Positions 1-61,285 are shown, numbered from the stretch's first letter. The stretch: DNA of 64,000 nt from a virus (IMGVR_UViG_3300009157_000016:1-64000), one strand, 5' to 3'. Numbers and translations are program-made. Notes: a model not told the origin generated them from the letters alone.

Positions 1-311
1 AAGGCCGCCGCCCGTGACTTCCGCACGTAGATGGTGACTTGCTCCTTGACGTGCGGGCCGTTCCCAACTCGCACAACGCCGCCGCCATCCACCCGTATGC
101 CGTATTTCCTATCGGCGTTGTTGCCACGTCCTCGGGAAATGTCCAAGGTCATGACGCACCATCCGATGGAGTCCGTCTTGTAGAAGGTCAACATCCCGTG
201 CTGACCCACATCGTGAACCATCGGGTCCTTCTGGAAGTCCGGGTAGCTCAGGTCAACCGCCAGCACGTTCGGCGGAAGAGCCTGAGGCTTCTTGCCTGTT
301 GCTCTTTTCAT
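1..311 (-). CDS. hypothetical early protein (runs off window start)
   Basis: ATG at 311 preceded by the repeated RBS CAGCAGGAGAGAGAAC; open frame MKRATGKKPQALPPNVLAVDLSYPDF... to the window edge; not in ORF track. Confidence 0.75.
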   Translation of the reverse strand, partial: MKRATGKKPQALPPNVLAVDLSYPDFQKDPMVHDVGQHGMLTFYKTDSIGWCVMTLDISRGRGNNADRKYGIRVDGGGVVRVGNGPHVKEQVTIYVRKSRAAA

Positions 312-390
312 GTTCTCTCTCCTGCTGTGAAGCACTCACGTTGAGCACTTCCCTATCCAGTCACTCTGACTGACTGGATGAGGCTGCGCT
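312..390 (-). repeat. intergenic hairpin+RBS element, copy 1
   Basis: AGCGC-AG-CCUCAUCCAGUCA-GUCAGAG-UGACUGGAUAGGG-AA-GUGCU (344-390) followed by CACAGCAGGAGAGAGAAC-ATG. Confidence 0.9.
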
Positions 391-471
391 CTACTGCTGT
401 AGAAGGTCGCGGATGCCTGCGATGACTGCTAGCGCAATCATCACAAGCAAGAAGACGTGGTCAGGCTGCAT
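391..471 (-). CDS. small hydrophobic peptide (26 aa)
   Basis: MQPDHVFLLVMIALAVIAGIRDLLQQ; overlaps the end of the upstream gene and stops at the hairpin. Confidence 0.45.
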   Translation of the reverse strand: MQPDHVFLLVMIALAVIAGIRDLLQQ

Positions 472-778
472 CCGGCACCGCCTGATACTGCTTCGCGTAT
501 CCAAGTGAATGAAGATTGTGGATGATTGACACCGCCATTTCTTCGTTTGATGGCAGTATCTCGTGCCCAAAGATGGTGTGACGGTAGATGTCAAACGCCT
601 GCAAGAGCACCAGCGCGGCATATTCGTCACTGACCTTCTTCGCCGTGCTGCCAATGCCCATCGCCGTGAAGATGTCCATCCCATTGGGATATTCCGTTGG
701 GTAGCCATCTTCACTGCTGTAGTGGGCGCTCATCTCTTCCGCGATGAGCCGGATGCGCTTTCCTAAATTTGTGTCCAT
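461..778 (-). CDS. hypothetical early protein
   Basis: 105 aa ORF; start preceded by the repeated RBS. Confidence 0.8.
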   Translation of the reverse strand: MDTNLGKRIRLIAEEMSAHYSSEDGYPTEYPNGMDIFTAMGIGSTAKKVSDEYAALVLLQAFDIYRHTIFGHEILPSNEEMAVSIIHNLHSLGYAKQYQAVPDAA

Positions 779-855
779 AGTTCTCTCTCCTGCTGTGAAA
801 TGCTTCCTAGCACTTCCCTATCCAGCCGCTCTGACCGGCTGGATGAGGCTGCGCT
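779..855 (-). repeat. intergenic hairpin+RBS element, copy 2
   Basis: Same as copy 1 with compensatory stem changes (UCA/UGA to CCG/CGG). Confidence 0.9.
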
Positions 856-1309
856 ACACTTGGATGTGGCTGGAAGTATCCAGCCGCTCCATTGGCAAAT
901 AGCTCTCAAGTGCCTCGAAGATCAGGTGATTGTAGAACTGCTCAATGATCTCCGGAGTGGCACCGTTGCCTTCCGTGAGGCCCTGCTGCATGTGCTCGGG
1001 GACATCGTCCCAGAGGAACGTGTCTTCCGTGGCCGCCACTTCGCCATCGCCGGCGCTGGAAGCAAGGGCGTAGGCTTTGCTGTTCCAATCCCAGCTTCCC
1101 ATGATGATCGTAATCGTGAGATCACGCTCATACACCAGCGTCATCGCAACGCCATGCTGCCGGAGTTCCCAGCCCTCGTTGAGAGGCCAGTTTTCCGCCA
1201 GCTTGAACGTCTCATGCTGCGCGTAGTCCTTGCTGTCCATTGTGTAACGGGGGTTGCCCATCCCATCCTGGAGCATGGTCACGCGCGGCAATGTGATCTT
1301 GTCACTCAT
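854..1309 (-). CDS. hypothetical early protein
   Basis: MSDKITL start chosen from the repeated RBS. Confidence 0.8.
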   Translation of the reverse strand: MSDKITLPRVTMLQDGMGNPRYTMDSKDYAQHETFKLAENWPLNEGWELRQHGVAMTLVYERDLTITIIMGSWDWNSKAYALASSAGDGEVAATEDTFLWDDVPEHMQQGLTEGNGATPEIIEQFYNHLIFEALESYLPMERLDTSSHIQV

Positions 1310-1390
1310 AGTTCTCACTCCTGCTGTGAAGTCCTCATCGTGAGCACTTCCCCTACCGGCGCAGTTCCCTGCGCCGGTAATGGCAGCGCT
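1310..1390 (-). repeat. intergenic hairpin+RBS element, copy 3
   Basis: AGCGC...UACCGGCGCAG-GGAA-CUGCGCCGGUA...GUGCU plus CACAGCAGGAGTGAGAACT-ATG. Confidence 0.9.
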
Positions 1391-1882
1391 CTAGCTGACA
1401 ATCATCTTCATGATGACCACATCCAAGCTTGGCTGCGCCTTGTAGAAGACACGCAGCTCGTCGCGTTCATAGGGTGTGGCATCCTCGCCAAGGCGGTTCT
1501 TGACTTCCGCCACAGCCGCTTCTTCGGTGGCATACGTTCCCGTGATGGGTTCCTCCACGGTCACGCCGCCATCCATGCTGACTTCGTAAACCAGCCACAC
1601 GGCCCAGTCTTCGCCGGGCTCCAGCGGGGGCTTGAACGTCCCTTCGCTCCGGTGCGGGTTGAACGGCCCGCCCAGCTTCTGGACGATCTCGCCCAGCCGG
1701 TAGTGGGCTTCCTCATCGCAGTCCAGGAAGCACTCCGTGCCGCCCTCTTCCGGGCTGTTGACATCCAGCGTGCCTCCCGGCGCTAACCAGATGTCTACGC
1801 CGTTGGCCTCCCGCATCAGCCATGACAGCTTCTCACGGAGGGCCTGCTCTTGGGCGTCAGTCAACTCAAGTATCTTGCTCAT
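1391..1882 (-). CDS. hypothetical acidic early protein
   Basis: 163 aa Glu/Asp-rich ORF with the repeated RBS. Confidence 0.8.
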   Translation of the reverse strand: MSKILELTDAQEQALREKLSWLMREANGVDIWLAPGGTLDVNSPEEGGTECFLDCDEEAHYRLGEIVQKLGGPFNPHRSEGTFKPPLEPGEDWAVWLVYEVSMDGGVTVEEPITGTYATEEAAVAEVKNRLGEDATPYERDELRVFYKAQPSLDVVIMKMIVS

Positions 1883-1962
1883 AGTTCTCTCTCCTGCTGT
1901 GTTGAAATGCTCCTAAGCACTTCCACATCTAACCGGGCTGGCCGGTTAGATGGGGCTGCGCT
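1883..1962 (-). repeat. intergenic hairpin+RBS element, copy 4
   Basis: AGCGC-AG-CCC-CAUCUAACCGG-CCAGC-CCGGUUAGAUG-UGG-AA-GUGCU plus RBS. Confidence 0.9.
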
Positions 1963-1963
1963 C

Positions 1964-2194
1964 TTATATGTTCTGTTGCACAAGCCGTTCCCGCACCATT
2001 TCTTGGGCGCGCAGGAGGCCAGCTTTATCCAAGGTGCTGACCATCCCGCTGAGCCTAAGCTCGTAGATGAACTGTCTTCTGTCATTGCTGACTTCCTTCA
2101 CGTAGCCCCTGTGGAGGGCAACGCGGAGGGCCGCCGGATCAGCGGCAATGAACGTGTCATCGTCAAGCTTGAGAAAGGCGGTGACTTTCTTCAT
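1964..2194 (-). CDS. hypothetical protein
   Basis: 76 aa; ATGA-coupled to the upstream small ORF. Confidence 0.7.
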   Translation of the reverse strand: MKKVTAFLKLDDDTFIAADPAALRVALHRGYVKEVSNDRRQFIYELRLSGMVSTLDKAGLLRAQEMVRERLVQQNI

Positions 2195-2316
2195 GACGTT
2201 ATCTCAAACGTCAAGCCCATCCCAGCCCGGAGGTTCCTCTCTTCGAGGGCTTCCAAGTAGGTTGCGCATTCTATGACCAACGGCTCTTCGTAGCCGTAAA
2301 AGGTGATCGTGATCAT
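2191..2316 (-). CDS. hypothetical small protein (41 aa)
   Basis: MITITFYGYEEPLVIECATYLEALEERNLRAGMGLTFEITS; ATGA overlaps at both ends. Confidence 0.6.
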   Translation of the reverse strand: MITITFYGYEEPLVIECATYLEALEERNLRAGMGLTFEITS

Positions 2317-2543
2317 CTGCGCCTCCGGGGGCCAATCTTGCCGGTCACCGGATCCACAGGCTTTCCGTTCACCGTGACATTCCCTTGGCTCAGGGCGGCG
2401 AAGAAAGAGTTGGCCACGTTGGCTATCTCAGCCTTCGTTGCCGGCCTGCTTCTGCCAACCACTCCGTCAGCGTTTTCCACGGTGATCTTACCCACCTTGA
2501 AGTTATCCAGGTTCTTCAACCTTCGGGTTCTCTTTGCTGTCAT
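2313..2543 (-). CDS. hypothetical basic protein
   Basis: MTAKRTRR start behind the repeated RBS. Confidence 0.75.
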   Translation of the reverse strand: MTAKRTRRLKNLDNFKVGKITVENADGVVGRSRPATKAEIANVANSFFAALSQGNVTVNGKPVDPVTGKIGPRRRR

Positions 2544-2625
2544 GATTCTCACTCCTGCTGTGAAGTATCCTGCTGTGAACACTCCTGCATCCAGCGGCCA
2601 CGCCGCTGGATATAGTTGCCTTCAC
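2544..2625 (-). repeat. intergenic hairpin+RBS element, copy 5 (divergent)
   Basis: GUGAA...AUCCAGCGGC-GUG-GCCGCUGGAU...UUCAC plus CACAGCAGGAGTGAGAATC-ATG. Confidence 0.8.
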
Positions 2626-2894
2626 TCTACTTTCATCTGACGCTGCCATTTTGTGGGAGTGTCATTGTACTTGTAGTATCTTGGATGCTGCTGCCTTTTC
2701 TTGAACCTTATCTTCGGCTTGCTATCATCCACGAAGTCATGCGTGCTGTGCTTCTCAGGTATTCCTCGGGGGAGGATACCGTAAAAGGAACACAGCGCTT
2801 CTTGCCTGCCGGGTTCCTTGTGCCTGCGTTCCCGCAATCTGCGGGGCAGCTTAGCTCTTGGAACCTTGCGGGCCTTACGCCAAGGTTTCTTCAT
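2622..2894 (-). CDS. hypothetical very basic protein
   Basis: Lys/Arg-rich ORF behind the repeated RBS. Confidence 0.7.
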   Translation of the reverse strand: MKKPWRKARKVPRAKLPRRLRERRHKEPGRQEALCSFYGILPRGIPEKHSTHDFVDDSKPKIRFKKRQQHPRYYKYNDTPTKWQRQMKVE

Positions 2895-2980
2895 GTTCAA
2901 CTCCTGCTGTGACGTGCTCTTGTGAACACCTCCCCAATGACTGAACGCGAAGTGCGCCCAGCCATTGAGATGACGTTCAT
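2895..2980 (-). repeat. intergenic hairpin+RBS element, copy 6 (divergent)
   Basis: CUCAAUGGCUGGGCGC/GCGUUCAGUCAUUGGG stem with several G-U pairs, plus CACAGCAGGAGTTGAAC-ATG. Confidence 0.8.
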
Positions 2981-2981
2981 C

Positions 2982-3635
2982 TTACCCCCTACCCTTCGCA
3001 GGGCTGCTTCCCCAACGGGCCACTTCCTTTTGCCTCAGCGGCCCATGCCGCTTTGCCTTCTTGGCCTTGGGTTTCTTTTGTGTTAGCTGCTCTTGCAAGT
3101 TGTCAGTGCCTACGCTGCGCATCTTGGGGAGCGCAACGTCACCATGATTCTCATTCATGGGGCCGCACTGGATGAGAAGCCACGTGATCACTTGGGATTG
3201 CAAGGCCACCGGGAGTGTGATCATCCACACCCCCTGACGCAGCCTGCGCCCTGAGATCATGAAGAGGCTATTCACCATGTGAGGCTGGAGCACCGGCTGC
3301 TTGCCCTTCATCTTGTAGCTCCAGCCAGCCGGCCGGCGTACAGTGAAGGGGAGTTTGACGCCACCTCTTTCAAGGCGGTCACCAAACCTCTTGCGAACAG
3401 CCTTGTCATTGAGAGTGACCGGCACATCCCGCGTGGGGTAGTGCGGCTTGCTCATCGCACGCTCATCCTGGCCCTTGGCTATCTCACGGAGCAGTGCCCG
3501 TGCTTCACCAAAGGCTAGGCCCTGCTCACTTAAGAGGAGCGTGCCTGCCGCCTCACGCCGTGCCCGCTGGGATGCGCGCCGCGCTTCCCGTAGGTCATGT
3601 TCAGCATGAAGCAGCTTTCTTACTGCCTTTTCCAT
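2982..3635 (-). CDS. hypothetical basic protein, first gene of the leftward operon
   Basis: ~217 aa ORF; RBS CAGGAGG upstream of ATG 3635. Confidence 0.75.
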   Translation of the reverse strand: MEKAVRKLLHAEHDLREARRASQRARREAAGTLLLSEQGLAFGEARALLREIAKGQDERAMSKPHYPTRDVPVTLNDKAVRKRFGDRLERGGVKLPFTVRRPAGWSYKMKGKQPVLQPHMVNSLFMISGRRLRQGVWMITLPVALQSQVITWLLIQCGPMNENHGDVALPKMRSVGTDNLQEQLTQKKPKAKKAKRHGPLRQKEVARWGSSPAKGRG

Positions 3636-3710
3636 TTCAACCACCTCCTGTGTGATGCCCTACGCATCAGCAAATGGCCTTCTTGGAAGCCACTTGCTGA
3701 TGGGTAGGTG
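3636..3710 (-). repeat. intergenic hairpin+RBS element, copy 7 (divergent)
   Basis: CCUAC-CCAUCAGCAAGUGGCUU...AAGGCCAUUUGCUGAUG-CGUAGG plus CACAGGAGG. Confidence 0.65.
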
Positions 3711-4507
3711 GCAGGCGCGCTTGTGACGGCGCGCCCGCCTACCCAACATTGCAGGAGGAGGAGAACAGCGTGGTGTGTGAGATGGCAGCTACTTGGCCCC
3801 TCACTTGAGATGCCTAAGAACCTTGCAGCATTGGCTGGTTGCTAGCGGCTTCACTTATCTTGCTGCCCTTGCGGCTTGACACCTACGTGCTGAACAGGAT
3901 CACGGGAACTGTTCAGGTTTCAGGGCGTCACTACACTTCCCTTTGCTGGCTTGCCTTGTGGGAGGGCTGCCGGTGCGTCACGTAGGCTGATTGCCGCCAG
4001 CCAGCCCTTGCGGGGCTGGCGGGATGCAAGATGTGGCTGATTGAGCTATGCAGGGTGCTATCATGGGTGCGGGAGTAGAAGCCCACACACCACGCTTGAA
4101 TTTGCCGCCCGGCTAATTGAGATGAGGAGTGCTACCCCTCACCCTAGGCGCGTTGAAAAGCGCCAAGCCTGTGAGATACGGAAGGGTTTTGCCCCCATGC
4201 CCCGCGCCGGTGACCGGCTGCAACACATGGGAAGACTTACTCACTGCCCCCTACAACGGGAGTTACAGGCCAGTGTCACCATCATCAGCGGTTACTCATC
4301 TCACCCCCTTGCCGTCAGGTGCCCCTCAGCAATCAAGATCACGCTAGATGACCCCTTTTGCCCGTGCCCGTGCGCCGCAGCTTAACAGCGGGATGAGAGT
4401 TTCACCAGCAGCGCAGTGGCTACCGGGTTACCCTCATGAGAGTTTGCGGTGCCTCACGGCGCTGCTCATCTCAGATGCCTTCACCTATGCCATAACGCAT
4501 AGCGGCA
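3710..4507 (-). ncRNA. candidate large structured leader/ncRNA (~800 nt)
   Basis: No credible ORF. Perfect 13-bp long-range inverted repeat (3767-3779/4084-4096), 9-bp inverted repeat (4118-4126/4295-4303), several GNRA-capped hairpins; starts just after a sigma70 promoter. Confidence 0.55.
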
Positions 4508-4512
4508 GCTAC

Positions 4513-4541
4513 ACGTTACCATAGGCGTTACACAGTGTCAA
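4513..4541 (-). promoter_or_regulatory. sigma70-type promoter (leftward)
   Basis: TTGACA (4541-4536), 17-bp spacer, TAACGT (4518-4513). Confidence 0.8.
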
Positions 4542-5288
4542 CCTAGCCAAAAGGATAATTTTGAGCCTGTGCAAAAGATAAGGCAGCTCATCCTGCTACC
4601 ATCCTCGCACCCATCTTCATCGCATTCTTCATACCCATCTTATTCGTATATCTTCCCGCCCCTCATAGCAAAGAAGAAAGCAGATTCGAAAACAAATCTA
4701 GCAAACGGGATTAAGAGCAAAACCCCCAACCCCGTCAAACGACATAAGTGCAACAATGCCCGCAAGAAGGGGACCAAACCGCATCCATGTGTAGGAGGAA
4801 TCGAAAACAAATCTAGCAACCAAGGATCAGGAGCTAACTCCTTGTCCAGCCAACGAATAAACAACAAAGCCCCAAGGCCCAAGAGAAGCGGTTCCCAGTG
4901 TCCTAAGATGCAAACGTTCTAGCAGTCCTACGACTCTAAGAAAAGCCCCATCCAGCAACCTTACTCTTCCTACGTCCCACCCCCGTCACATAGAACAGGT
5001 TCCTAGGACAAAGCAAACCGACACCAAGAGGATAATCCTGCCAAAGACACCAAGAATGCAGCTTATGTGGACAGCACTCCCCATAGAGCCCACTGGACCC
5101 ACAATGCAGCTTAAGAAAACAGGAAACCCACGTAGTCCGTTGAAAAAGCCTGTCTAAGGCCGCCTCCCCTCAAGAAGAATTAATCGTGGACTGAGAAGAA
5201 CAGGACAGACTCTATCGTGTTCTTTCTTCCCCACAGTCCCCCATACCACATAAGGGGGTTTGCTAGAAGAACAAGATACTCTTCTTTG

Positions 5289-5416
5289 GCACGACCCGCA
5301 GGAATTATATGCACGACAGGACTCAATTCCCTTGCACGAGCAGGTTCAATTCTTGTGTGCGACGCTGGGTATTTCTTCACACCGACCATGTGGAATAGTG
5401 TAGCACGACTATCAGG
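5289..5416 (+). repeat. imperfect ~22-23 bp tandem repeats GCACGA..CAGG..AATT
   Basis: Units start at 5289, 5311 and 5334; weaker copies at 5359 and 5403. Confidence 0.6.
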
Positions 5417-5531
5417 ATGAAAGTAGATTCGAAAAAATTTCTAGCAACCGGGTTTTCGAACGACGTGGGGAATGCTCTAGCTGTCTTATTCATTGTGCTA
5501 CTTAGGTCGTCGTTCCTTGCGGAAGGGCTCT

Positions 5532-5734
5532 ATCGTCTTCTTTCTTCTTCCGGGGGTCTCTTTCTTCTTCCCCATGCGGACATGCGGGGAAGAAGATGGA
5601 AGGCGATTCGAAAAAATTTCTAGCGAAGGGGGTTTGATAGCGCGGGCCAACTATGAGAAGAAGAGTGCCCAAGAAATGGTTAATCGTCCTCTTTCTTCTT
5701 CCGGGGGTCTCTGTCTGCTTCTTTCTTCTTCCCC
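5532..5734 (+). repeat. pyrimidine-rich direct repeat pair
   Basis: ATCGTC(T/C)TCTTTCTTCTTCCGGGGGTCTCT...TCTTCTTCCCC at ~5532-5573 and ~5683-5734. Confidence 0.8.
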
Positions 5735-5923
5735 GCGCCGTGAAGGGAAGAGGGCGGGAAGAAGAGGGAGGAGATTCGAAAGCGATTATAGGAAGAAGAA
5801 TGAGGAGCGCCGGCGCGAGGAGGCCGGGAAGAGGGGTGCCGGCCGCCGGCCGCAAGGCGGCATGGTTAACGGGAGGTTTATTAACCATATGCCTGAAAGC
5901 GCCGCCGGCATTGTTGTTTTTTG

Positions 5924-5952
5924 TTGCCGTTACGCTGTGTAACGCCCATATT
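5924..5952 (+). promoter_or_regulatory. putative sigma70-type promoter (rightward)
   Basis: TTGCCG, 17-bp spacer, CATATT; the spacer contains the CTGTGTAACGC motif. Confidence 0.5.
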
Positions 5953-6122
5953 GACGTTGCACCGGGCTTGACCGGTCAGGGCGGCCCATGCCGCCCGCTT
6001 CACCGGGCCACGCGCGCTTGACGGCGCTTGCACGTGGTACCGCGGCGGCGCTAAGCGGCCGGGCTCACTTGCCCGTGCCATGCTGCGCAAGGTGACACGG
6101 CGCAAGCCGGTGCCGCGCTATG

Positions 6123-6141
6123 GCGTTACGCTGTGTAACGC
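6123..6141. promoter_or_regulatory. palindromic operator-like site GCGTTAC-N5-GTAACGC
   Basis: Related copies at 4525-4541 (-), 5928-5945 and 6808-6824 share CTGTGTAACGC. Confidence 0.6.
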
Positions 6142-6169
6142 TAGGCGCAAAGCCTGAAAGGTTGAAGCA

Positions 6170-6760
6170 ATGGCAAAGGGTATTGACTACGGTTTCACCG
6201 GCGTGAGCCGCGCGGCGCTTGACTACTGGCCCACGGGCAAGGCGGCGCAAGGCGGCATTGACTGCGGCCCACGGCCCACGCAAGCGCAGCTTGACGCGGC
6301 CGCCGTGCTACTGCCACGGCAGGGTACGGGCAAACACTTGGCGCTTGCCATGTACGGCCGTGAAGGCGGCGCGCTACAGGCGCAAGTGAGCCGCGTGACC
6401 GGTGACACGCAAGTGAACGTACTGCGCAACCTCATTGCCGCCGGCAAGGTTGTGGCGCGGCCGTTGCCGGGTGAGGGCAACGCCAAGCGCTACGCGTACG
6501 CGTTGCCGGGCGCGGCCAAGGGCAAGGGCAAGGGCGCGGCCAAGGTGACCGCCACGCCGGCCGCCAAGGTGACCGCCAAGGGCGCGGCCAAGCCGGCCGC
6601 CAAGGGCAAGGGCAAGGGCAACGTGCCCGCCGTGCCCGCCAAGCCTGACCGCGCGGCGCTTAAGCGCGCGGCTGACGCGCTTTTGGCCAAGCGCAAGCCG
6701 GCCGCCACGGTGGCCGCCACGCCGGCCGCCACGCCGGCCGGTGACAAGCCGGCCGCCTGA
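6170..6760 (+). CDS. putative DNA-binding protein: winged-helix-like domain plus histone-H1-like Ala/Lys/Pro tail
   Basis: 196 aa; GT...EGGA...TG..Q.NVL..L...G core; AAKVTA/KGKGKG repeats in the C-terminal half. Confidence 0.75.
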   Translation: MAKGIDYGFTGVSRAALDYWPTGKAAQGGIDCGPRPTQAQLDAAAVLLPRQGTGKHLALAMYGREGGALQAQVSRVTGDTQVNVLRNLIAAGKVVARPLPGEGNAKRYAYALPGAAKGKGKGAAKVTATPAAKVTAKGAAKPAAKGKGKGNVPAVPAKPDRAALKRAADALLAKRKPAATVAATPAATPAGDKPAA

Positions 6761-6773
6761 TAGCGGCTCACAT

Positions 6774-6801
6774 GCTAGGGCGCGCCACGGCGCGCCCTAG
6801 C
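6774..6801. terminator. GC-rich hairpin after the H1-like gene
   Basis: GCTAGGGCGCGCC-AC-GGCGCGCCCTAGC; no U-tract. Confidence 0.4.
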
Positions 6802-6838
6802 GCCACGGTGACACTGTGTAACGCATGAGGTTGCGGCA

Positions 6839-7027
6839 ATGATTGATGACACAACGCATAGGCAATGGGCCGGCATGAGTGCCGGTCACAAGCTGGTCAG
6901 CGGTACGCGTGACCAGCTAGCGCGCTACGCGCCGCGCAAGCGCTACAGCTTGACGCGCGCTTTTGCGCTGACGTTTGCCGCCGGCTTTGCGCTTTGCGGC
7001 TTTGCGCTTGCGCTTTACGCGCTTTGA
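6839..7027 (+). CDS. small protein with C-terminal transmembrane segment
   Basis: 62 aa; RBS GAGG; hydrophobic C-terminus. Confidence 0.6.
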   Translation: MIDDTTHRQWAGMSAGHKLVSGTRDQLARYAPRKRYSLTRAFALTFAAGFALCGFALALYAL

Positions 7028-7033
7028 TTGCAT

Positions 7034-7067
7034 GGGGGCGGGTACCCGTTTGCGGGTACCCGCCCCC
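7034..7067. terminator. 15-bp perfect hairpin between convergent transcription units
   Basis: GGGGGCGGGTACCCG-TTTG-CGGGTACCCGCCCCC. Confidence 0.65.
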
Positions 7068-7167
7068 CTATTGCCGGGGGGCACCTTCCCTGCGAATTTC
7101 AGCACTCCAATACTCTAAGGAAGCGGTTCTCAGGACACCCCCATGCCCCCACTGAAACCCGCCATAG

Positions 7168-7392
7168 CTACGCGGTTTCACCAGAAGCCGATCCCGACAT
7201 TTCTCCACGGATTTCACGCAACAGAACCGGGTCACTCAGCAAGATGCATCGACCGCATAGTTCCCGCACCCGCACCGCCTCACCAAGCAGCAGGCGTAGG
7301 AAGTCTGACGCATTGCAGAACCCATTGCAGTCACGAATGATCACTCCGCATTCCACGCAGCGTCTCTCACCAATCCCATCCCACCCGCTCAT
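7168..7392 (-). CDS. hypothetical Zn-finger-like protein
   Basis: CxxC...CxxC; ATGA-coupled to the upstream gene. Confidence 0.6.
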   Translation of the reverse strand: MSGWDGIGERRCVECGVIIRDCNGFCNASDFLRLLLGEAVRVRELCGRCILLSDPVLLREIRGEMSGSASGETA

Positions 7393-7685
7393 GGGACGTT
7401 CCGCAGGTTCGACTTCCCCTGATCCGGTTGCGGCTCATCCTGGACTCCGGCGTCGGCTCCTCGATCAATCGAGAATTTCATCCCTCCCCGAACCGGATCG
7501 AAGTCGCCAGCCTGATTCCAAGCAGCAGATGCAATCGCCTTGTCAAACTGCACAACGTCGAACACCGCGCTCCGCTCAGTGAGGGTGCGAACGAATGCGT
7601 CACGAACTGTCTTTCTGATCTCTTCGGGACATGCTGCAATTCCCTTGGCGATCACGACATAGTGTCCGGAATCAAACTTCGCCAT
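7389..7685 (-). CDS. hypothetical protein
   Basis: ORF in a tightly coupled minus-strand run; start MAKFD chosen. Confidence 0.6.
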   Translation of the reverse strand: MAKFDSGHYVVIAKGIAACPEEIRKTVRDAFVRTLTERSAVFDVVQFDKAIASAAWNQAGDFDPVRGGMKFSIDRGADAGVQDEPQPDQGKSNLRNVP

Positions 7686-7962
7686 TCCCTTCGGCCTTCC
7701 TCGGTTCTTCACTATCGGTTTCAGGGGAGGTAGACTCATCGCAGATCTCCATTGTTGGAACTTCGCATCTGGCGTGGATCGTCAGAGCTTCTTCATCCAC
7801 CGTTTGCTGGATGATCTCTTCGTCCTCTCCCAAAGGATCACCGCAATGGGCGCAGAGGGCTCCTGCTAGGAACCTTCGCATTTGCCGGAGCATTGCTTCC
7901 AGTTCTCGCTCCCTATCCTCCCGCCGGATTTTCAGAAGCAGTTCTTCCACTCGTCCCGCCAT
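7672..7962 (-). CDS. hypothetical protein (CxxC...HxxC)
   Basis: ORF overlapping both neighbours; GAGG RBS. Confidence 0.6.
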   Translation of the reverse strand: MAGRVEELLLKIRREDRERELEAMLRQMRRFLAGALCAHCGDPLGEDEEIIQQTVDEEALTIHARCEVPTMEICDESTSPETDSEEPRKAEGNGEV

Positions 7963-20474: not shown

Positions 20475-21182
20475 ATGGCCACATTGAATCTTAACGGCAT
20501 TGGCGTGGTGATTGGAGTTCCCACGTGGCAGCAATGCATCAACGCTCAGTTTGTGAACTCCCTCTATTCCACAATCAACTATCTTACCGCACAAGGCGTG
20601 CGCCACGGCTTCATCTGCTTCGACGGAGCGTGCGTTGAGAAGTCACGCAACGCCATTGTCGCGAAGTTCATGACGAGCGGTTACTCACACTTGCTCTTCA
20701 TTGATCCCGACCAAGGGTGGCAGCCGCCTGACGTTGTGCGCCTGCTGGCGCACCAGAAGGATTTCGTAGGCGCAGCCATTCGCAAGAAGAGCGAGGATGT
20801 GCGCTGGAACGTCAATTTCACCGAAGGGGCGGAGGTGAGCGAGGAGGGCCTCCTCCTTGTGGACGAGATTGGCACCGGCTTCGCAATGATGTCACGTCGC
20901 GTGTTTGAGCGCACCGCCATTGCCATGCCGGAACAGCGGATCATTGACAAGACCGTCGAAGGTCCGTTCTACCGCTGGTACTACCCTGAGGTCGTGAACG
21001 GTGACTACTTAGGGGAGGACATCAACTTCGCCCGGAAGTGGCGTCAGCTCTGCAACGGTGCAATCTATGTGGACGTGACGCTGAGCCTTTCGCACTTCGG
21101 CAGCTACGACTACAAGGGCTGCCTAGGCGAGCACCTTCTTGAAGCGCAGGAAGCTTCGATGAGTAGCGGCGATGCTCGTTAA
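20475..21182 (+). CDS. GT-A fold glycosyltransferase
   Basis: VIGVPT, SRNAIV, HLLFIDPD (DxD), IGTGFAMMSRRVF, GEDINF. Confidence 0.85.
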   Translation: MATLNLNGIGVVIGVPTWQQCINAQFVNSLYSTINYLTAQGVRHGFICFDGACVEKSRNAIVAKFMTSGYSHLLFIDPDQGWQPPDVVRLLAHQKDFVGAAIRKKSEDVRWNVNFTEGAEVSEEGLLLVDEIGTGFAMMSRRVFERTAIAMPEQRIIDKTVEGPFYRWYYPEVVNGDYLGEDINFARKWRQLCNGAIYVDVTLSLSHFGSYDYKGCLGEHLLEAQEASMSSGDAR

Positions 21183-56422: not shown

Positions 56423-57478
56423 TCAGTCTCCGAAGTTGGACAAGATTTGGAAGAGGTCCGCCCCCTTCCGGTAGACCGTGAAGCCTTCCAGCACGGCCAT
56501 CTCTGAGCATACGTCAATGCTGCGCGCCATCAAAGCCGCGTTGACCTTGATCTCGACGTCTGGATGATCCCCTTGAAGGTTGACCAGATCGCGCACCTCG
56601 CCCATGTCGGTGTTCGTGTATAGGCGCATCCGGCCTTCCTTGATGCTGATCTCAGTGGGCTGCGATTTGGGCTCAGCCACGACACGCGCCCGGCTCAGAG
56701 CGTGCTCAAGTCCTTTGGGGACCTTCATCCACGGGATCTCATCCCGCGTGGTCTTTTCGACCCACATGGCGTGGTCCACCGGGTCTTCTGGTTTGATGAC
56801 GCGGCCGTAGACCTTGTAGTCCTTCTCAAGCTCGGCCAACACCCATTCGTCAGAAGCGTGCAGCCGGCCGTTCATGGACTTGTCGCTCTTGCAAATGCGC
56901 AGGACCGACTCGCAGAAGGAGTTGGGCATGACGAAGCTGTGCGGGTCGTTGTAGTTGGCTCCGTCGATCAGGTAGTGCGTGAGGCTGTCTGAGTCGCAGG
57001 AGTAGAAGCTGATCCCGTCACCGGTATCCAACGTGATGCCCATGAGCGCCTGTTGGCTGCTGTCCTTGCTGGTCGTGGTGAGGCAAATTTCCATCGCCTC
57101 AATCAGGCTGTCATCCAGGTCCAGCACCACGTCCCACGACTCGTCAGACGGTTCTTTGAACAGGAACTCTGACTCTGGCAAGTAGGGCAGGCGCATCTTG
57201 GACCGGCCGGCAATGAACACGACTTCGTGTTGCTGGTCGTCGAACTCAATCTCCACTTCCTCGGTGCGGCAGTTGCGCAGCAAGCCGAGCATGGTGTCGC
57301 CGTGGCAGGCGAAGGGCGCTACGCCGGACGTGCATTTGGCCACGATGCCTAGGTGGTCGTCCGTCGCGTACAGGGTGTCCCCTGTGAACACGAAGTTCTG
57401 GTAGACGGGAACCAAGTCCTGATCGGCCAAGGCGGGCTTGATCAGTTCCAACATCGTGACCAGTGCTTTGCGTCTCAT
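56423..57478 (-). CDS. DNA sliding clamp (beta-clamp, DnaN-like)
   Basis: ~351 aa; LYATDDH, QALMGI, SCDSDSL repeats of the beta-clamp ATD motif; same module as DnaX. Confidence 0.8.
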   Translation of the reverse strand: MRRKALVTMLELIKPALADQDLVPVYQNFVFTGDTLYATDDHLGIVAKCTSGVAPFACHGDTMLGLLRNCRTEEVEIEFDDQQHEVVFIAGRSKMRLPYLPESEFLFKEPSDESWDVVLDLDDSLIEAMEICLTTTSKDSSQQALMGITLDTGDGISFYSCDSDSLTHYLIDGANYNDPHSFVMPNSFCESVLRICKSDKSMNGRLHASDEWVLAELEKDYKVYGRVIKPEDPVDHAMWVEKTTRDEIPWMKVPKGLEHALSRARVVAEPKSQPTEISIKEGRMRLYTNTDMGEVRDLVNLQGDHPDVEIKVNAALMARSIDVCSEMAVLEGFTVYRKGADLFQILSNFGD

Positions 57479-57918
57479 AGCCTCACCCTTCTTGCTAGTT
57501 TCCAACGGCGCTTGGCCGATTGCTGCATCTTTGCGATAGATTCGGATGTGTGCCGCGTACCATACCTTATGTGACCTATACCTTTCTGCGTGACGCCGGA
57601 GTGACCCTTCTGAGATTTATGTTTGGCGTGACAAGAAGGATAGAGTTGATTCTGACTGTTGGTTCCATCAAGTAAGTGCGCGGCGTTGCAGCACGGATGA
57701 AATTCGCAGTCATGGAGAACCATTCTTGGCCATGCTGGCACGTAACCGTTCTCTAAGAAGAACGCCACGCGATGGGCAGTGTACTGTATGCTGTGACGAA
57801 CTGAGAATACTCCATGCCCACTGGTTTGCGTTCCGCCTAACCAAGGCCAGCATTCGTCGGGGCCGCGTCGGTCAACTTTGGACCAGAAGCGCGCTATGTC
57901 TTTAGCGCTGAGGATCAT
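57475..57918 (-). CDS. HNH endonuclease
   Basis: RFWSKVD..GPDECWPWLG, AHRVAF, VLHDC..PCCNAAHL..GT..QN; ends RRVRL. Confidence 0.9.
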   Translation of the reverse strand: MILSAKDIARFWSKVDRRGPDECWPWLGGTQTSGHGVFSVRHSIQYTAHRVAFFLENGYVPAWPRMVLHDCEFHPCCNAAHLLDGTNSQNQLYPSCHAKHKSQKGHSGVTQKGIGHIRYGTRHTSESIAKMQQSAKRRWKLARRVRL

Positions 57919-58799
57919 TCTGGCTTCCTGAAAATCAAAAGGTGCTCGTGTCTCGGCACGAGCTTCTTACCGCGCCATGCGTTGCCTGCTCTCTTGGCGG
58001 CGCTGGCGAAGTTTTTGGACAGGATAATGTCCTGCCAAAACAGGAAGCCTGCTTCACGGAAGTTCTCAACGGTATGGCTGCGGAAGTCGACCAGCTCCCC
58101 GGTCTTGTCACGGAAGTTGCCGACCACAATGCAGACGAACGCTCCCGGCTTCATGAGCGGCCAATGCGCGTAGGCGCACAGCATCATGGAAGCGTTGAAT
58201 TCTGCGTAAGAGATGGAGTTTGAGACATCGTCCCGCTGTTCGCTATACACCTCGAGATCAAAATAAGGGGGACAGGTGACAGCACAGTCAAAATCAGACT
58301 CGTCGATATCAAGATAGCGAGCGTCATCAAGGTGGTAATGCACGCGGTCAAGATTAAGGTCGGCGATAACCTTTTCGTTCTCATCTAACTGCTCCTGCCT
58401 GACGTCTACCCCGTGGTAGATGTGGCCCATGAGGGAAGCGGCTATGGCACGGGGCGGCCCGCCGCAGAAGGCGTCAAGGACCTTCGCCCTGCGCTCCTTG
58501 CCAGCGTAGCGTAGGTAAATCCATTCAGCCAAGGGAAGGGGGAACACGCTGTACGTGCCGGTGTAGACGCTGTCATGGTCAGCCCGGAACTTCTCAGCGC
58601 GTTCCCCGGTGTGGCCGTCCTCGTCAGTGACGCGACGCCAATCCCGCACGCGGCGCTTGATAGCCTCATCCACGTGCCAGATAGTCATGCTGGTCGAGAA
58701 GTCGAGCGTGGGGCGGACATACCCTTGCTTGAAGTCGGTCAGGGTCGGCCGAGTGATTTCCCGCACGCGGCCGTCAGGGAGAGTCTTCTTAAATAACAT
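57915..58799 (-). CDS. DNA amino-methyltransferase (N4-C/N6-A)
   Basis: VLDAFCGG (motif I), TCPPYFDLEVYS (motif IV), HEHLLIFRK. Confidence 0.88.
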   Translation of the reverse strand: MLFKKTLPDGRVREITRPTLTDFKQGYVRPTLDFSTSMTIWHVDEAIKRRVRDWRRVTDEDGHTGERAEKFRADHDSVYTGTYSVFPLPLAEWIYLRYAGKERRAKVLDAFCGGPPRAIAASLMGHIYHGVDVRQEQLDENEKVIADLNLDRVHYHLDDARYLDIDESDFDCAVTCPPYFDLEVYSEQRDDVSNSISYAEFNASMMLCAYAHWPLMKPGAFVCIVVGNFRDKTGELVDFRSHTVENFREAGFLFWQDIILSKNFASAAKRAGNAWRGKKLVPRHEHLLIFRKPE

Positions 58800-59178
58800 T
58801 CTGGCTACTCCTGTAACCCATGCGGCGGTTCAGCACGTGGTAGGCGTGTTCGATGTTCTTGCCGTGAGTTCCCCATTCAAGGTTATCCTCACAGTTATTC
58901 GACCGGTCGCCGTCGTCGCTCTTATGATTGACTTCGTGATCTGGACTCGGAGGGGGACCGTGAAAGGCTGTGCAGACGAGAACGTGAACAAGGAATTGCT
59001 TCGTCACTCCGTTCTTGCTGAGCACGACAGGTACATACCCACCCTTGCGTGGACGCAGACTTAGCAATTTGCCAGCCTGCGTCCCGATAGCTTGGCGGTC
59101 GCGCCGCACGCGCCCAAGACTGGAAACGCTGTACCAGCCTTCGTAGCCGACCACTGGCTTCCAGACTTCACGGCGCAT
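58789..59178 (-). CDS. NUMOD4-HNH homing endonuclease
   Basis: EVWKPVVGYEGWYSVSSLGRVR; VHVLVCTAF.G; VNHK...NLEWGT..N. Confidence 0.9.
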   Translation of the reverse strand: MRREVWKPVVGYEGWYSVSSLGRVRRDRQAIGTQAGKLLSLRPRKGGYVPVVLSKNGVTKQFLVHVLVCTAFHGPPPSPDHEVNHKSDDGDRSNNCEDNLEWGTHGKNIEHAYHVLNRRMGYRSSQNVI

Positions 59179-59189
59179 GACTGGCTCGC

Positions 59190-59447
59190 TTATGTAAGAG
59201 CGATGGGGGCGACGGCGGTAGTGCGGAGTTCGTGCTCCCGCGTGTAGGCCACCGCCTGTGCAAAGATGTCGGCTGCCCAAGCGTCAACCGTCTCCGCGTC
59301 CGTGAGCGGCTGGCCGTCCACCCCCGGTCCATACTTGATGCGGTGCGCGGCTACGAACCGTCCAAGGTCGGTAGCGTTGACAGTCTTGGTGACCGTCCTT
59401 CTGGTTGCCGGCGTCCCGCCGTTCACGTCAATGCTAATCGTCGCCAT
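59190..59447 (-). CDS. hypothetical protein
   Basis: 85 aa; AAGGAGG RBS. Confidence 0.7.
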   Translation of the reverse strand: MATISIDVNGGTPATRRTVTKTVNATDLGRFVAAHRIKYGPGVDGQPLTDAETVDAWAADIFAQAVAYTREHELRTTAVAPIALT

Positions 59448-60343: not shown

Positions 60344-61285
60344 TCAGTCGTCGCGGCGGCGGCGGCTGCCCTTCCGGTCGTCATCGTCATCCTTGCGGCT
60401 GGACCGCTTGGAGTCCTTGGCATCGTCGTCGTCACGGCTGCGGCGCTTGGACGAGGAAGCCTCCTTGTCGTCGTCGCGGCTGCGGCGCTTGCCCTTGTCG
60501 TCATCGTCGTCACGGGAGCGGCGCTTGCTGCTGCCCTTGTCGTCGTCATCACGGGACCGCTTCCGGTCGCCGTCGTCGGAGTCACGCTCCTTGTTCGAAG
60601 CGGTGGTCATTTTCCGCTTCTGCGCCGAGGACAGGTCATCCTTGTGCGTGACCTTGATCAGACCGTCGTAGCGCTCGACAAGGTGCCCATCCTTGGTCAG
60701 CTTCTTGAGCACGTTGTTCTGCGGGCCGCCGGTCTTGTCCTTGATGGTCTTCATGGACGCGCCGCCCTCGAAGAGCTTCACGGCGTCGGAGACCTTGGTG
60801 CCGACGACGAGCCCGTAGCGGTCGCGCTTCGCACCCTCGTAGTCACGGGGCGACTTCTTTTTGGAGCCCTTGTCGTCGTCCTTGTCACGGCCGCGGATGG
60901 ATTTGCGGTCGTCCTTGTCGTCGTCCTTGGAGGAACGACGGCCGCGCCGGTCATCCTTGTCCTCGTCCTTGTCCTTCGACTTGGCCGACTTGCGGTCATC
61001 GTCGTCGTCCTTGGACGAACGCTTGCCGCCCTTGCGGTCGTCGTCCTTGCCGCCCTTCTCCTCCTCGAAGTCCTCGATATCCTGGTCGGTCTTCAAGGCG
61101 TCCAGCGCGTTGTTCGCCCAGTCGGTCGCCGGGTCTGAGACCGCGTTGAACTCGTCGTCGGGAAGCTTGTTGACTTCCTTGGCGAGCGCGGCAAGGTAGT
61201 CCTGCCGGGTCTTGTAGTCGTCCTCGTCCTTCTTGAAGCCGGTCGCCTTGATCAGCTCCTTCTCGATTGCATGGAGTTTGGCCAT
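60344..61285 (-). CDS. winged-helix-like protein with long Lys/Arg/Asp mixed-charge tracts
   Basis: Core GTKVSDAVKLFEGGASMKTIKDKTGGPQNNVLKKLTKDGHLV flanked by KDDDR/RSRDDD repeats. Confidence 0.75.
   Translation of the reverse strand: MAKLHAIEKELIKATGFKKDEDDYKTRQDYLAALAKEVNKLPDDEFNAVSDPATDWANNALDALKTDQDIEDFEEEKGGKDDDRKGGKRSSKDDDDDRKSAKSKDKDEDKDDRRGRRSSKDDDKDDRKSIRGRDKDDDKGSKKKSPRDYEGAKRDRYGLVVGTKVSDAVKLFEGGASMKTIKDKTGGPQNNVLKKLTKDGHLVERYDGLIKVTHKDDLSSAQKRKMTTASNKERDSDDGDRKRSRDDDDKGSSKRRSRDDDDDKGKRRSRDDDKEASSSKRRSRDDDDAKDSKRSSRKDDDDDRKGSRRRRDD

Follow-up and report, generated by a model that had tools for sequence, protein, structure and literature searches.

Why should 1.2 kb of a phage genome, promoter, genes and terminator alike, contain no AGA, CGA or GGA on either strand and keep TGA? 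The question is raised by positions 5875–7086 of IMGVR_UViG_3300009157_000016:1-64000, a window of 64,000 nucleotides (the whole stretch analysed) from an uncultured, siphovirus-like phage with a 108-kb genome (108,377 bp) of 58% GC. The three trinucleotides and their complements (TCT, TCG, TCC) are written VGA/TCB below, and the stretch free of them is called the island. An earlier note, made by reading this sequence, had described the island and offered explanations for it. The reading favoured here, at a probability of about one half, is that the phage puts a covalent mark on VGA/TCB, that its first cassette is kept unmarkable, and that a cost of the mark on early transcription is the likely reason.

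Word content of the island

The six trinucleotides were counted in 5875–7086 (1212 bp) and occur 0 times, with about 120 expected. The same stretch holds 34 TGA and 8 TCA, as the earlier note had described. Its limits also stand: GGA at 5872 (5872–5874) and TCC at 7087 (7087–7089). The resulting gap of 1215 bp is the longest without VGA/TCB across the whole genome, the runners-up being 168, 138 and 80 bp. The 168-bp VGA-free gap (100542–100710) is due to the long Ala/Lys/Pro tail of a winged-helix paralogue of an island protein. At a density of 0.096 VGA/TCB sites per bp, exp(−density × length) is about 2e-51 for the island. The island has 67.5% GC, above the value of the genome, and is rich in GGC/GCC (139 copies).

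The earlier note had set the absence against uniform frequencies; with a Markov background check run, about 120 sites are expected against 0 found. Genome-trained models of order 1 and order 3 give 125 and 116 sites (minima 104 and 92). An order-1 model trained on the island's own dinucleotides gives 33 sites, with a minimum of 19 in 500 runs. When the two island open reading frames (ORFs) are resampled synonymously with genome codon usage, they carry 36 and 14 sites on average and never fewer than 20 and 7. With codon order shuffled instead, 28 and 10 are expected, and 0 is never reached. The objection that amino-acid composition might reproduce the absence thus fails: neither composition nor codon choice alone gives 0. 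Every Asp or Glu codon in the island ORFs is preceded by a codon that ends in T. These null models and T-ending codons show that the constraint acts on DNA and is no by-product of protein composition.

Several sources of such a constraint were dismissed. Hypermutation by a TC-specific deaminase is ruled out by the GC content of the island, which exceeds that of the genome, and by the intact state of its two ORFs. Readers at the RNA level (RNases, ribosome, Rho) are ruled out: the sense strand is without both VGA and TCB. We know of no system of CRISPR PAM avoidance or of primase recognition words that fits VGA with TGA exempt, nor of any system that removes a 3-bp word so strongly from duplex DNA.

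The island is one complete rightward transcription unit, running from a candidate promoter through two small ORFs to a terminator hairpin. The candidate promoter P1, read from the sequence, is of sigma-70 type (5922–5950, plus strand; TTGCCG, 17-nt spacer, CATATT) with a T-rich tract upstream. ORF196 (6170–6760, plus strand) and ORF62 (6839–7027, plus strand) follow. The unit is closed by a perfect GC-rich inverted repeat of 15 bp, a probable bidirectional terminator (7034–7067; fold energy −37.6 kcal/mol, z-score −6.7). From about 48 bp upstream of the P1 −35 element, the island extends to 19 bp past the hairpin; to its right lies a converging minus-strand operon.

A weaker, graded purge is seen in a second early operon, which runs leftward from the candidate promoter P4 (4507–4541, minus strand; TTGACA, 17-nt spacer, TAACGT). 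In the leader of this operon (3455–4605, minus strand), CGA/TCG occurs 0 times against 40 expected and VGAC once against 33. In the operon itself (1–3454, minus strand), CGAC occurs twice against 41 expected. VGAC depletion is strongest at 2001–4000, with 1 VGAC/GTCB against about 55 per typical 2-kb window; CGAC at 1–2000 is found twice against about 23. The gradient is gone by about 4.5 kb from the leftward promoter, and the genome is ordinary beyond. Selection against the word weakens with distance from this promoter. The graded depletion indicates a reader that prefers CGAC to CGAN and VGAC, favours these in turn over other VGAN, and ignores TGAN.

Between the two units lies a non-coding control or repeat region, delimited by repeat search (4606–5874, 1.27 kb). 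It is the most VGA-rich DNA of the genome (AGAA 40 times against 10.6 expected). It contains five GATTCGAAAA...TCTAGC boxes, each with GANTC and TCGA, and long CT-tract/GA-tract inverted repeats, whose hairpins fold at −36.9 and −61.6 kcal/mol. The plus strand of its first 545 bp is 66% A+C.

Homologues of ORF196 are few, with P0004 at 67% identity. A metagenome contig with 98% protein identity (L010) has an equivalent island with a gap of 1227 bp. Its 12 substitutions inside the island make 0 forbidden words, against 28% of random substitutions that would make one; 3 of the 12 make new GA/TC steps, all as TGA/TCA. In a far more distant contig (L012; about 50% protein identity, 55% GC), exactly the same three word pairs are missing from a gap of 883 bp. 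Within this gap lie the ORF196 homologue, another small ORF and a GC hairpin, and the gap ends 23 bp past the hairpin. It is followed by a GA/CT-rich repeat region with TGCAATGCA boxes, analogous to 4606–5874. An end just past the terminator hairpin is therefore seen in two lineages, and the word exclusion is conserved across deep divergence. L011, from another metagenome, carries the same two-gene cassette with ordinary word use (75 sites in 1050 bp). Since this cassette uses normal words, the proteins do not require the exclusion.

Positions 1–640 of L011, a natural control lineage, encode a 124-aa protein with winged helix and basic tail and a 61-aa membrane-type protein, in ordinary trinucleotides. 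Two strain differences were seen inside ORF196. At position 6596, a 12-nt in-frame insertion polymorphism in the Ala/Lys/Pro tail occurs in three metagenomes; it adds one TGA and no VGA. At 6661, T>G (strain L010/X2) makes CTGAAG, a word purged genome-wide, inside the island.

Shielding of restriction words in the rest of the genome

Restriction words were counted in 8001–108377, outside the early region. CAGCTG, CCATGG, CCCGGG, CTGCAG, GCATGC, GGGCCC and GTGCAC have 0 copies (12–39 expected each). Nearly purged are GGCGCC (2), CCGCGG (4), AGGCCT (4) and CTGAAG (5 against 46 expected). Two 7-bp words are also at 0, namely CCCNGGG (17 expected) and TGANTCA (24 expected). The phage is under heavy restriction avoidance.

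The purge is selective for words without VGA/TCB. Strongly depleted hexamers were defined by an observed/expected ratio of at most 0.45 with at least 20 expected (n = 18). VGA/TCB is held by 0 of the 18, against a background of 37.5% (p = 2e-4). With this threshold it comes first of 64 comparable word classes; with the two other thresholds it shares first place. The only purged non-palindrome is CTGAAG, and its GA sits within TGA.

The same word is treated differently according to its flanks. GANTC is found 0 times of 24 expected as TGANTCA, 78 times of 115 with one VGA flank and 134 times of 134 as VGANTCB. With other palindromic flanks (A..T, C..G, G..C) it is at or above expectation. The 32% depletion of half-shielded GANTC argues for GANTC, rather than TGANTCA, as the real target. 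GAATTC, GACGTC, GAGCTC and GATATC have 96 copies in all, 0 of them as TGA...TCA against 10.5 expected. In the control phage RXM (Citromicrobium; TerL 35% identity), which has no word-free island, GACGTC is at 0 against about 23 and GAGCTC at 0 against about 37, in all contexts. Among survivors of the nearly purged palindromes, 21 of 28 are overlapped at the edge by VGA/TCB, against 32% for non-purged control palindromes. Together these statistics suggest that VGA/TCB words neutralise the restriction words that they overlap. A covalent mark throughout the genome would be the simplest cause.

Candidate genes for such a mark are three: a methyltransferase gene, a dCTP-deaminase-like gene and a DUF1643 gene. 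The methyltransferase (57915–58799, minus strand) is the sole recognisable amino-methyltransferase and the candidate maker of the mark (Pfam PF01555 N6_N4_Mtase, E = 2.4e-8, with a SAM-binding domain). It is flanked by HNH endonuclease genes at 57475–57918 and 58789–59280. These neighbours carry HNH_3, and NUMOD4 plus HNH_3 domains, and could be homing endonucleases or a restriction-like partner. The earlier note had counted two amino-methyltransferases and a glycosyltransferase in the window; one amino-methyltransferase is upheld, a second is unconfirmed, and the supposed glycosyltransferase (20475–21182) has no Pfam match at E <= 1. Sequence searches of the PDB with the DUF1643, methyltransferase and dCTP-deaminase-like proteins were uninformative, the methyltransferase relatives being remote (E = 0.005). 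Six-frame searches with PF01702 and PF06508, aimed at DpdA (TGT fold) and preQ0 synthesis, gave no match; they are weak, as the method also missed the known methyltransferase.

Other genes of the phage encode a tape measure protein of 1726 aa, TerL, portal protein, PolA, DnaB-like helicase, DnaG-type primase, clamp, clamp loader, RecA/UvsX-like protein and SbcCD. Relatives of its TerL include phages of Alphaproteobacteria.

Explanations of the word exclusion

In the favoured reading, the phage would place a covalent mark on VGA/TCB duplex words of its own DNA, with CGAC/GTCG marked best and TGA/TCA never, and the mark would protect overlapping restriction sites genome-wide. The first-expressed cassette, 5875–7086, would have been rewritten by selection, from promoter to terminator, into DNA with no markable word, and would be the only part to reach the cell as plain DNA. 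In the leftward early operon, the promoter-proximal part would have shed the words that are marked best. This avoidance is likely explained by the mark hindering the unmodified host transcription machinery on infecting DNA; each marked site between promoter and gene would then cost all downstream expression. The cost is tied to transcription because the island ends match promoter and terminator and the gradient in the second operon is polar. We infer that the shield is a covalent mark, that it is phage-made (the PF01555 enzyme being the candidate) and that its cost falls on early transcription. Put in its general form, that a tailed phage marks about 1 bp in 10 at a three-base degenerate word and writes its first unit in an unmarkable vocabulary, as plain DNA for a naive host, the proposal is judged a shade below even odds. 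Of the two explanations in the earlier note, DNA kept free of a phage-made VGA/TCB mark thus gains indirect support, words overlapped by VGA/TCB being exempt from the purge; the purpose given there, transcription by host RNA polymerase, stays conjectural.

Several points weigh against this reading. The evidence for a mark consists of word statistics of assembled contigs, and few purged words stand behind the shielding tests. Several GA/TC and AC/GT classes do about as well in the overlap test, which therefore does not distinguish VGA from GA in general. TGANTCA might be a 7-bp restriction site in its own right, CCCNGGG being equally absent. Pfam scans covering about 90 ORFs revealed no hypermodification pathway (DpdA, QueC, a thymidylate-synthase homologue and C5-methylase were all missing), with most ORFs left without a family. 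In phages whose DNA is heavily modified, early transcription takes place on marked DNA, and no phage DNA mark that blocks host RNA polymerase is known to us. The GA-centred modification of phage CAjan extends to TGA (PMC7544227).

An unlikely alternative, the other explanation in the earlier note, is that the cassette enters the cell first, perhaps within a terminal repeat and with entry pausing at the repeat region, as does T5 pre-early DNA. The cassette would be purged of the target of a DNA-cutting or DNA-damaging activity that comes into play earlier than the cassette's own products, and no mark would be needed. In T5-like phages, sensitivity to restriction, CRISPR and Ssp systems depends only on sites in first-step-transfer DNA, next to which lies a long non-coding repeat region (PMC10644984; 10.1101/866236); the same first-entry logic holds in Murciavirus (PMC12455610). 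The 1.27-kb non-coding repeat region adjoining the island, with a similar one in L012, is reminiscent of the T5 injection stop signal; it lies between two divergent early units, and the purge grows weaker along the DNA that follows. In two sediment metagenomes, contig depth over roughly 5021 to 7200–7796 is about 1.65-fold the flanking value, a step that is only a hint. Against first entry, metagenome contigs bridge both island borders, and the IMG/VR record is linear and complete without end repeats. A 3-bp degenerate word is read by no defence known to us, and about 10% of the host's own positions would need protection. Nowhere in the genome is VGA denser than in the neighbouring repeat region. 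The island keeps unshielded copies of words nearly purged from the bulk genome (ACGCGT three times, CCGCGG once), where they are tolerated almost only when shielded. First entry fits less well, and it leaves the shielding statistics unexplained.

A slightly less probable explanation, itself a variant of the mark model, is a phage frequent-cutter nuclease or nickase with a cognate methyltransferase, both reading VGA in the manner of the chlorovirus pairs that degrade host DNA. Methylation would protect the bulk genome, and the earliest cassette would be intrinsically nuclease-proof, working even when unmethylated or hemimethylated. The lone amino-methyltransferase between two HNH genes invites this explanation, the shielding statistics fit it as well as they fit a mark that burdens transcription, and Davison proposed the same logic for T5 A1 (10.1101/866236). 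NUMOD4 and HNH_3 are, however, typical of homing endonucleases, and nothing ties the HNH genes to VGA; the virion DNA would already be methylated, so that it is not obvious why a word-free cassette would be needed. Very improbable is a DNA-binding protein, either the phage's own histone-H1-like product or a host silencer, that coats VGA DNA and nucleates on GA-rich repeats, with the early units avoiding its sites. The hyper-VGA repeat region beside the island in both lineages, the depletion graded away from that region and the cassette-encoded winged-helix protein with basic tail would suit it. A VGA-binding silencer is nevertheless made unlikely by L011, where the gene for the same protein shows no word exclusion. 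For a binding protein, a 3-bp specificity able to purge all sites would be unusual, and the context-specific shielding of restriction sites is not obviously explained.

Parts of the pattern have known counterparts. T5/BF23 (PMC10644984) and Murciavirus (PMC12455610) are established cases in which first-entering DNA avoids host recognition sites. As there, a short early-expressed stretch is purged of target words, and as in T5/BF23 a long non-coding repeat or palindrome region lies alongside two oppositely oriented early units. The avoided words there are host-system sites of 4–8 bp, whereas here a 3-bp degenerate word is fully removed and some nearly purged hexamers remain in the island. The region was shown to enter first there; the island is known from sequence alone. 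Homologues of T5 A1, A2 and dmp were not found, and the ORFs of the island and of the left early operon have no Pfam or PHROG family.

Phage CAjan carries DpdA-dependent dPreQ0 at GA and GGC, with all NGA words modified (PMC7544227). A short GA-centred word marked genome-wide would likewise protect the present phage against restriction enzymes. Unlike CAjan, it has no DpdA or preQ0 genes that were found, and its island tolerates TGA (42 TGA/TCA) and abounds in GGC/GCC, which means a different specificity. We know of no modification-free cassette in CAjan-type phages. Chloroviruses possess nickase/methylase pairs with three-base degenerate sites, such as Nt.CviPII at CCD with M.CviPII; the three-base word excluding one outer base and the heavy genome-wide viral methylation are alike. 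The differences are that those are eukaryotic algal viruses, that no cognate nuclease was identified here and that no word-free cassette is reported there. [quoted passage not shown]

If the reading is true, a word-free early cassette would be a sequence-only signature of a DNA modification not yet known. Sequence alone would name the target word (VGA/TCB, best CGAC) and predict which restriction enzymes fail on the phage DNA. DNA marks would then carry a cost that phages must work around, of which no description was found in print. The flank-context test, in which the same restriction word is compared with shielded and unshielded flanks, is cheap and usable on every island-bearing phage genome. 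Even if the mark fails, some reader of a 3-bp duplex word has purged about 120 sites, coding and non-coding alike, in diverged lineages.

Further features of the early region

Contig breaks occur near 5020 and 7172–7796 in the same two sediment metagenomes as the depth step; a terminal repeat or a strain-shared module is possible.

Megablast of 25 kb against phage records found no close relative. No relatives were found in scans of IMG/VR with ORF196, ORF220, TerL and an ORF196 alignment, nor in a scan of GTDB genome contigs.

A strict sigma-70 consensus scan of 3400–7400 returned no promoter; P1 and P4, the latter read from the sequence and by motif match, are candidates. A 14-nt motif, ACRCTGTGTAACGC, operator- or promoter-like, is present in four copies: at 5932–5945 (plus strand), at 6128–6141 in the 5' leader of ORF196 (plus strand), at 6811–6824 between ORF196 and ORF62 (plus strand) and at 4525–4538 inside P4 (minus strand). 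The window has five matches against 0.7 expected, these four and one minus-strand match with 2 mismatches that overlaps the second copy. The 11-nt core of the motif occurs only 4 times in the 108-kb genome. TAA is present in all four copies. An exact search of IMG/VR with the 15-nt form GACACTGTGTAACGC gave six chance-like matches (varied GC, no VGA/TCB-free gap), and the same search with a 17-nt form of the promoter-like motif gave none. A reading of the hairpin-like motif as a site for an N4-like or virion RNA polymerase was dropped: neither a large RNA polymerase ORF nor a DxDGD motif turned up, and only two of the four copies are able to form the hairpin. A mini-ORF of 17 codons (5889–5942) lies behind GGGAGG, overlaps the candidate P1 and has its stop codon inside the first motif copy.

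ORF62 is translated into a small protein with a hydrophobic C-terminal segment. The translation of ORF196 has a winged-helix-like N-terminal domain and an Ala/Lys/Pro-rich basic tail (histone-H1-like), with homologues P0004 and P0005; no Pfam or PHROG family was found for it. Its AlphaFold2 model is poor (pLDDT 43, too poor for a fold search), with three helices and a beta hairpin visible. Two further winged-helix paralogues of ORF196 are encoded in the genome, at 60344–61285 (minus strand) and 100285–101031 (minus strand). One has Lys/Arg/Asp mixed-charge tails, the other a long Ala/Lys/Pro tail.

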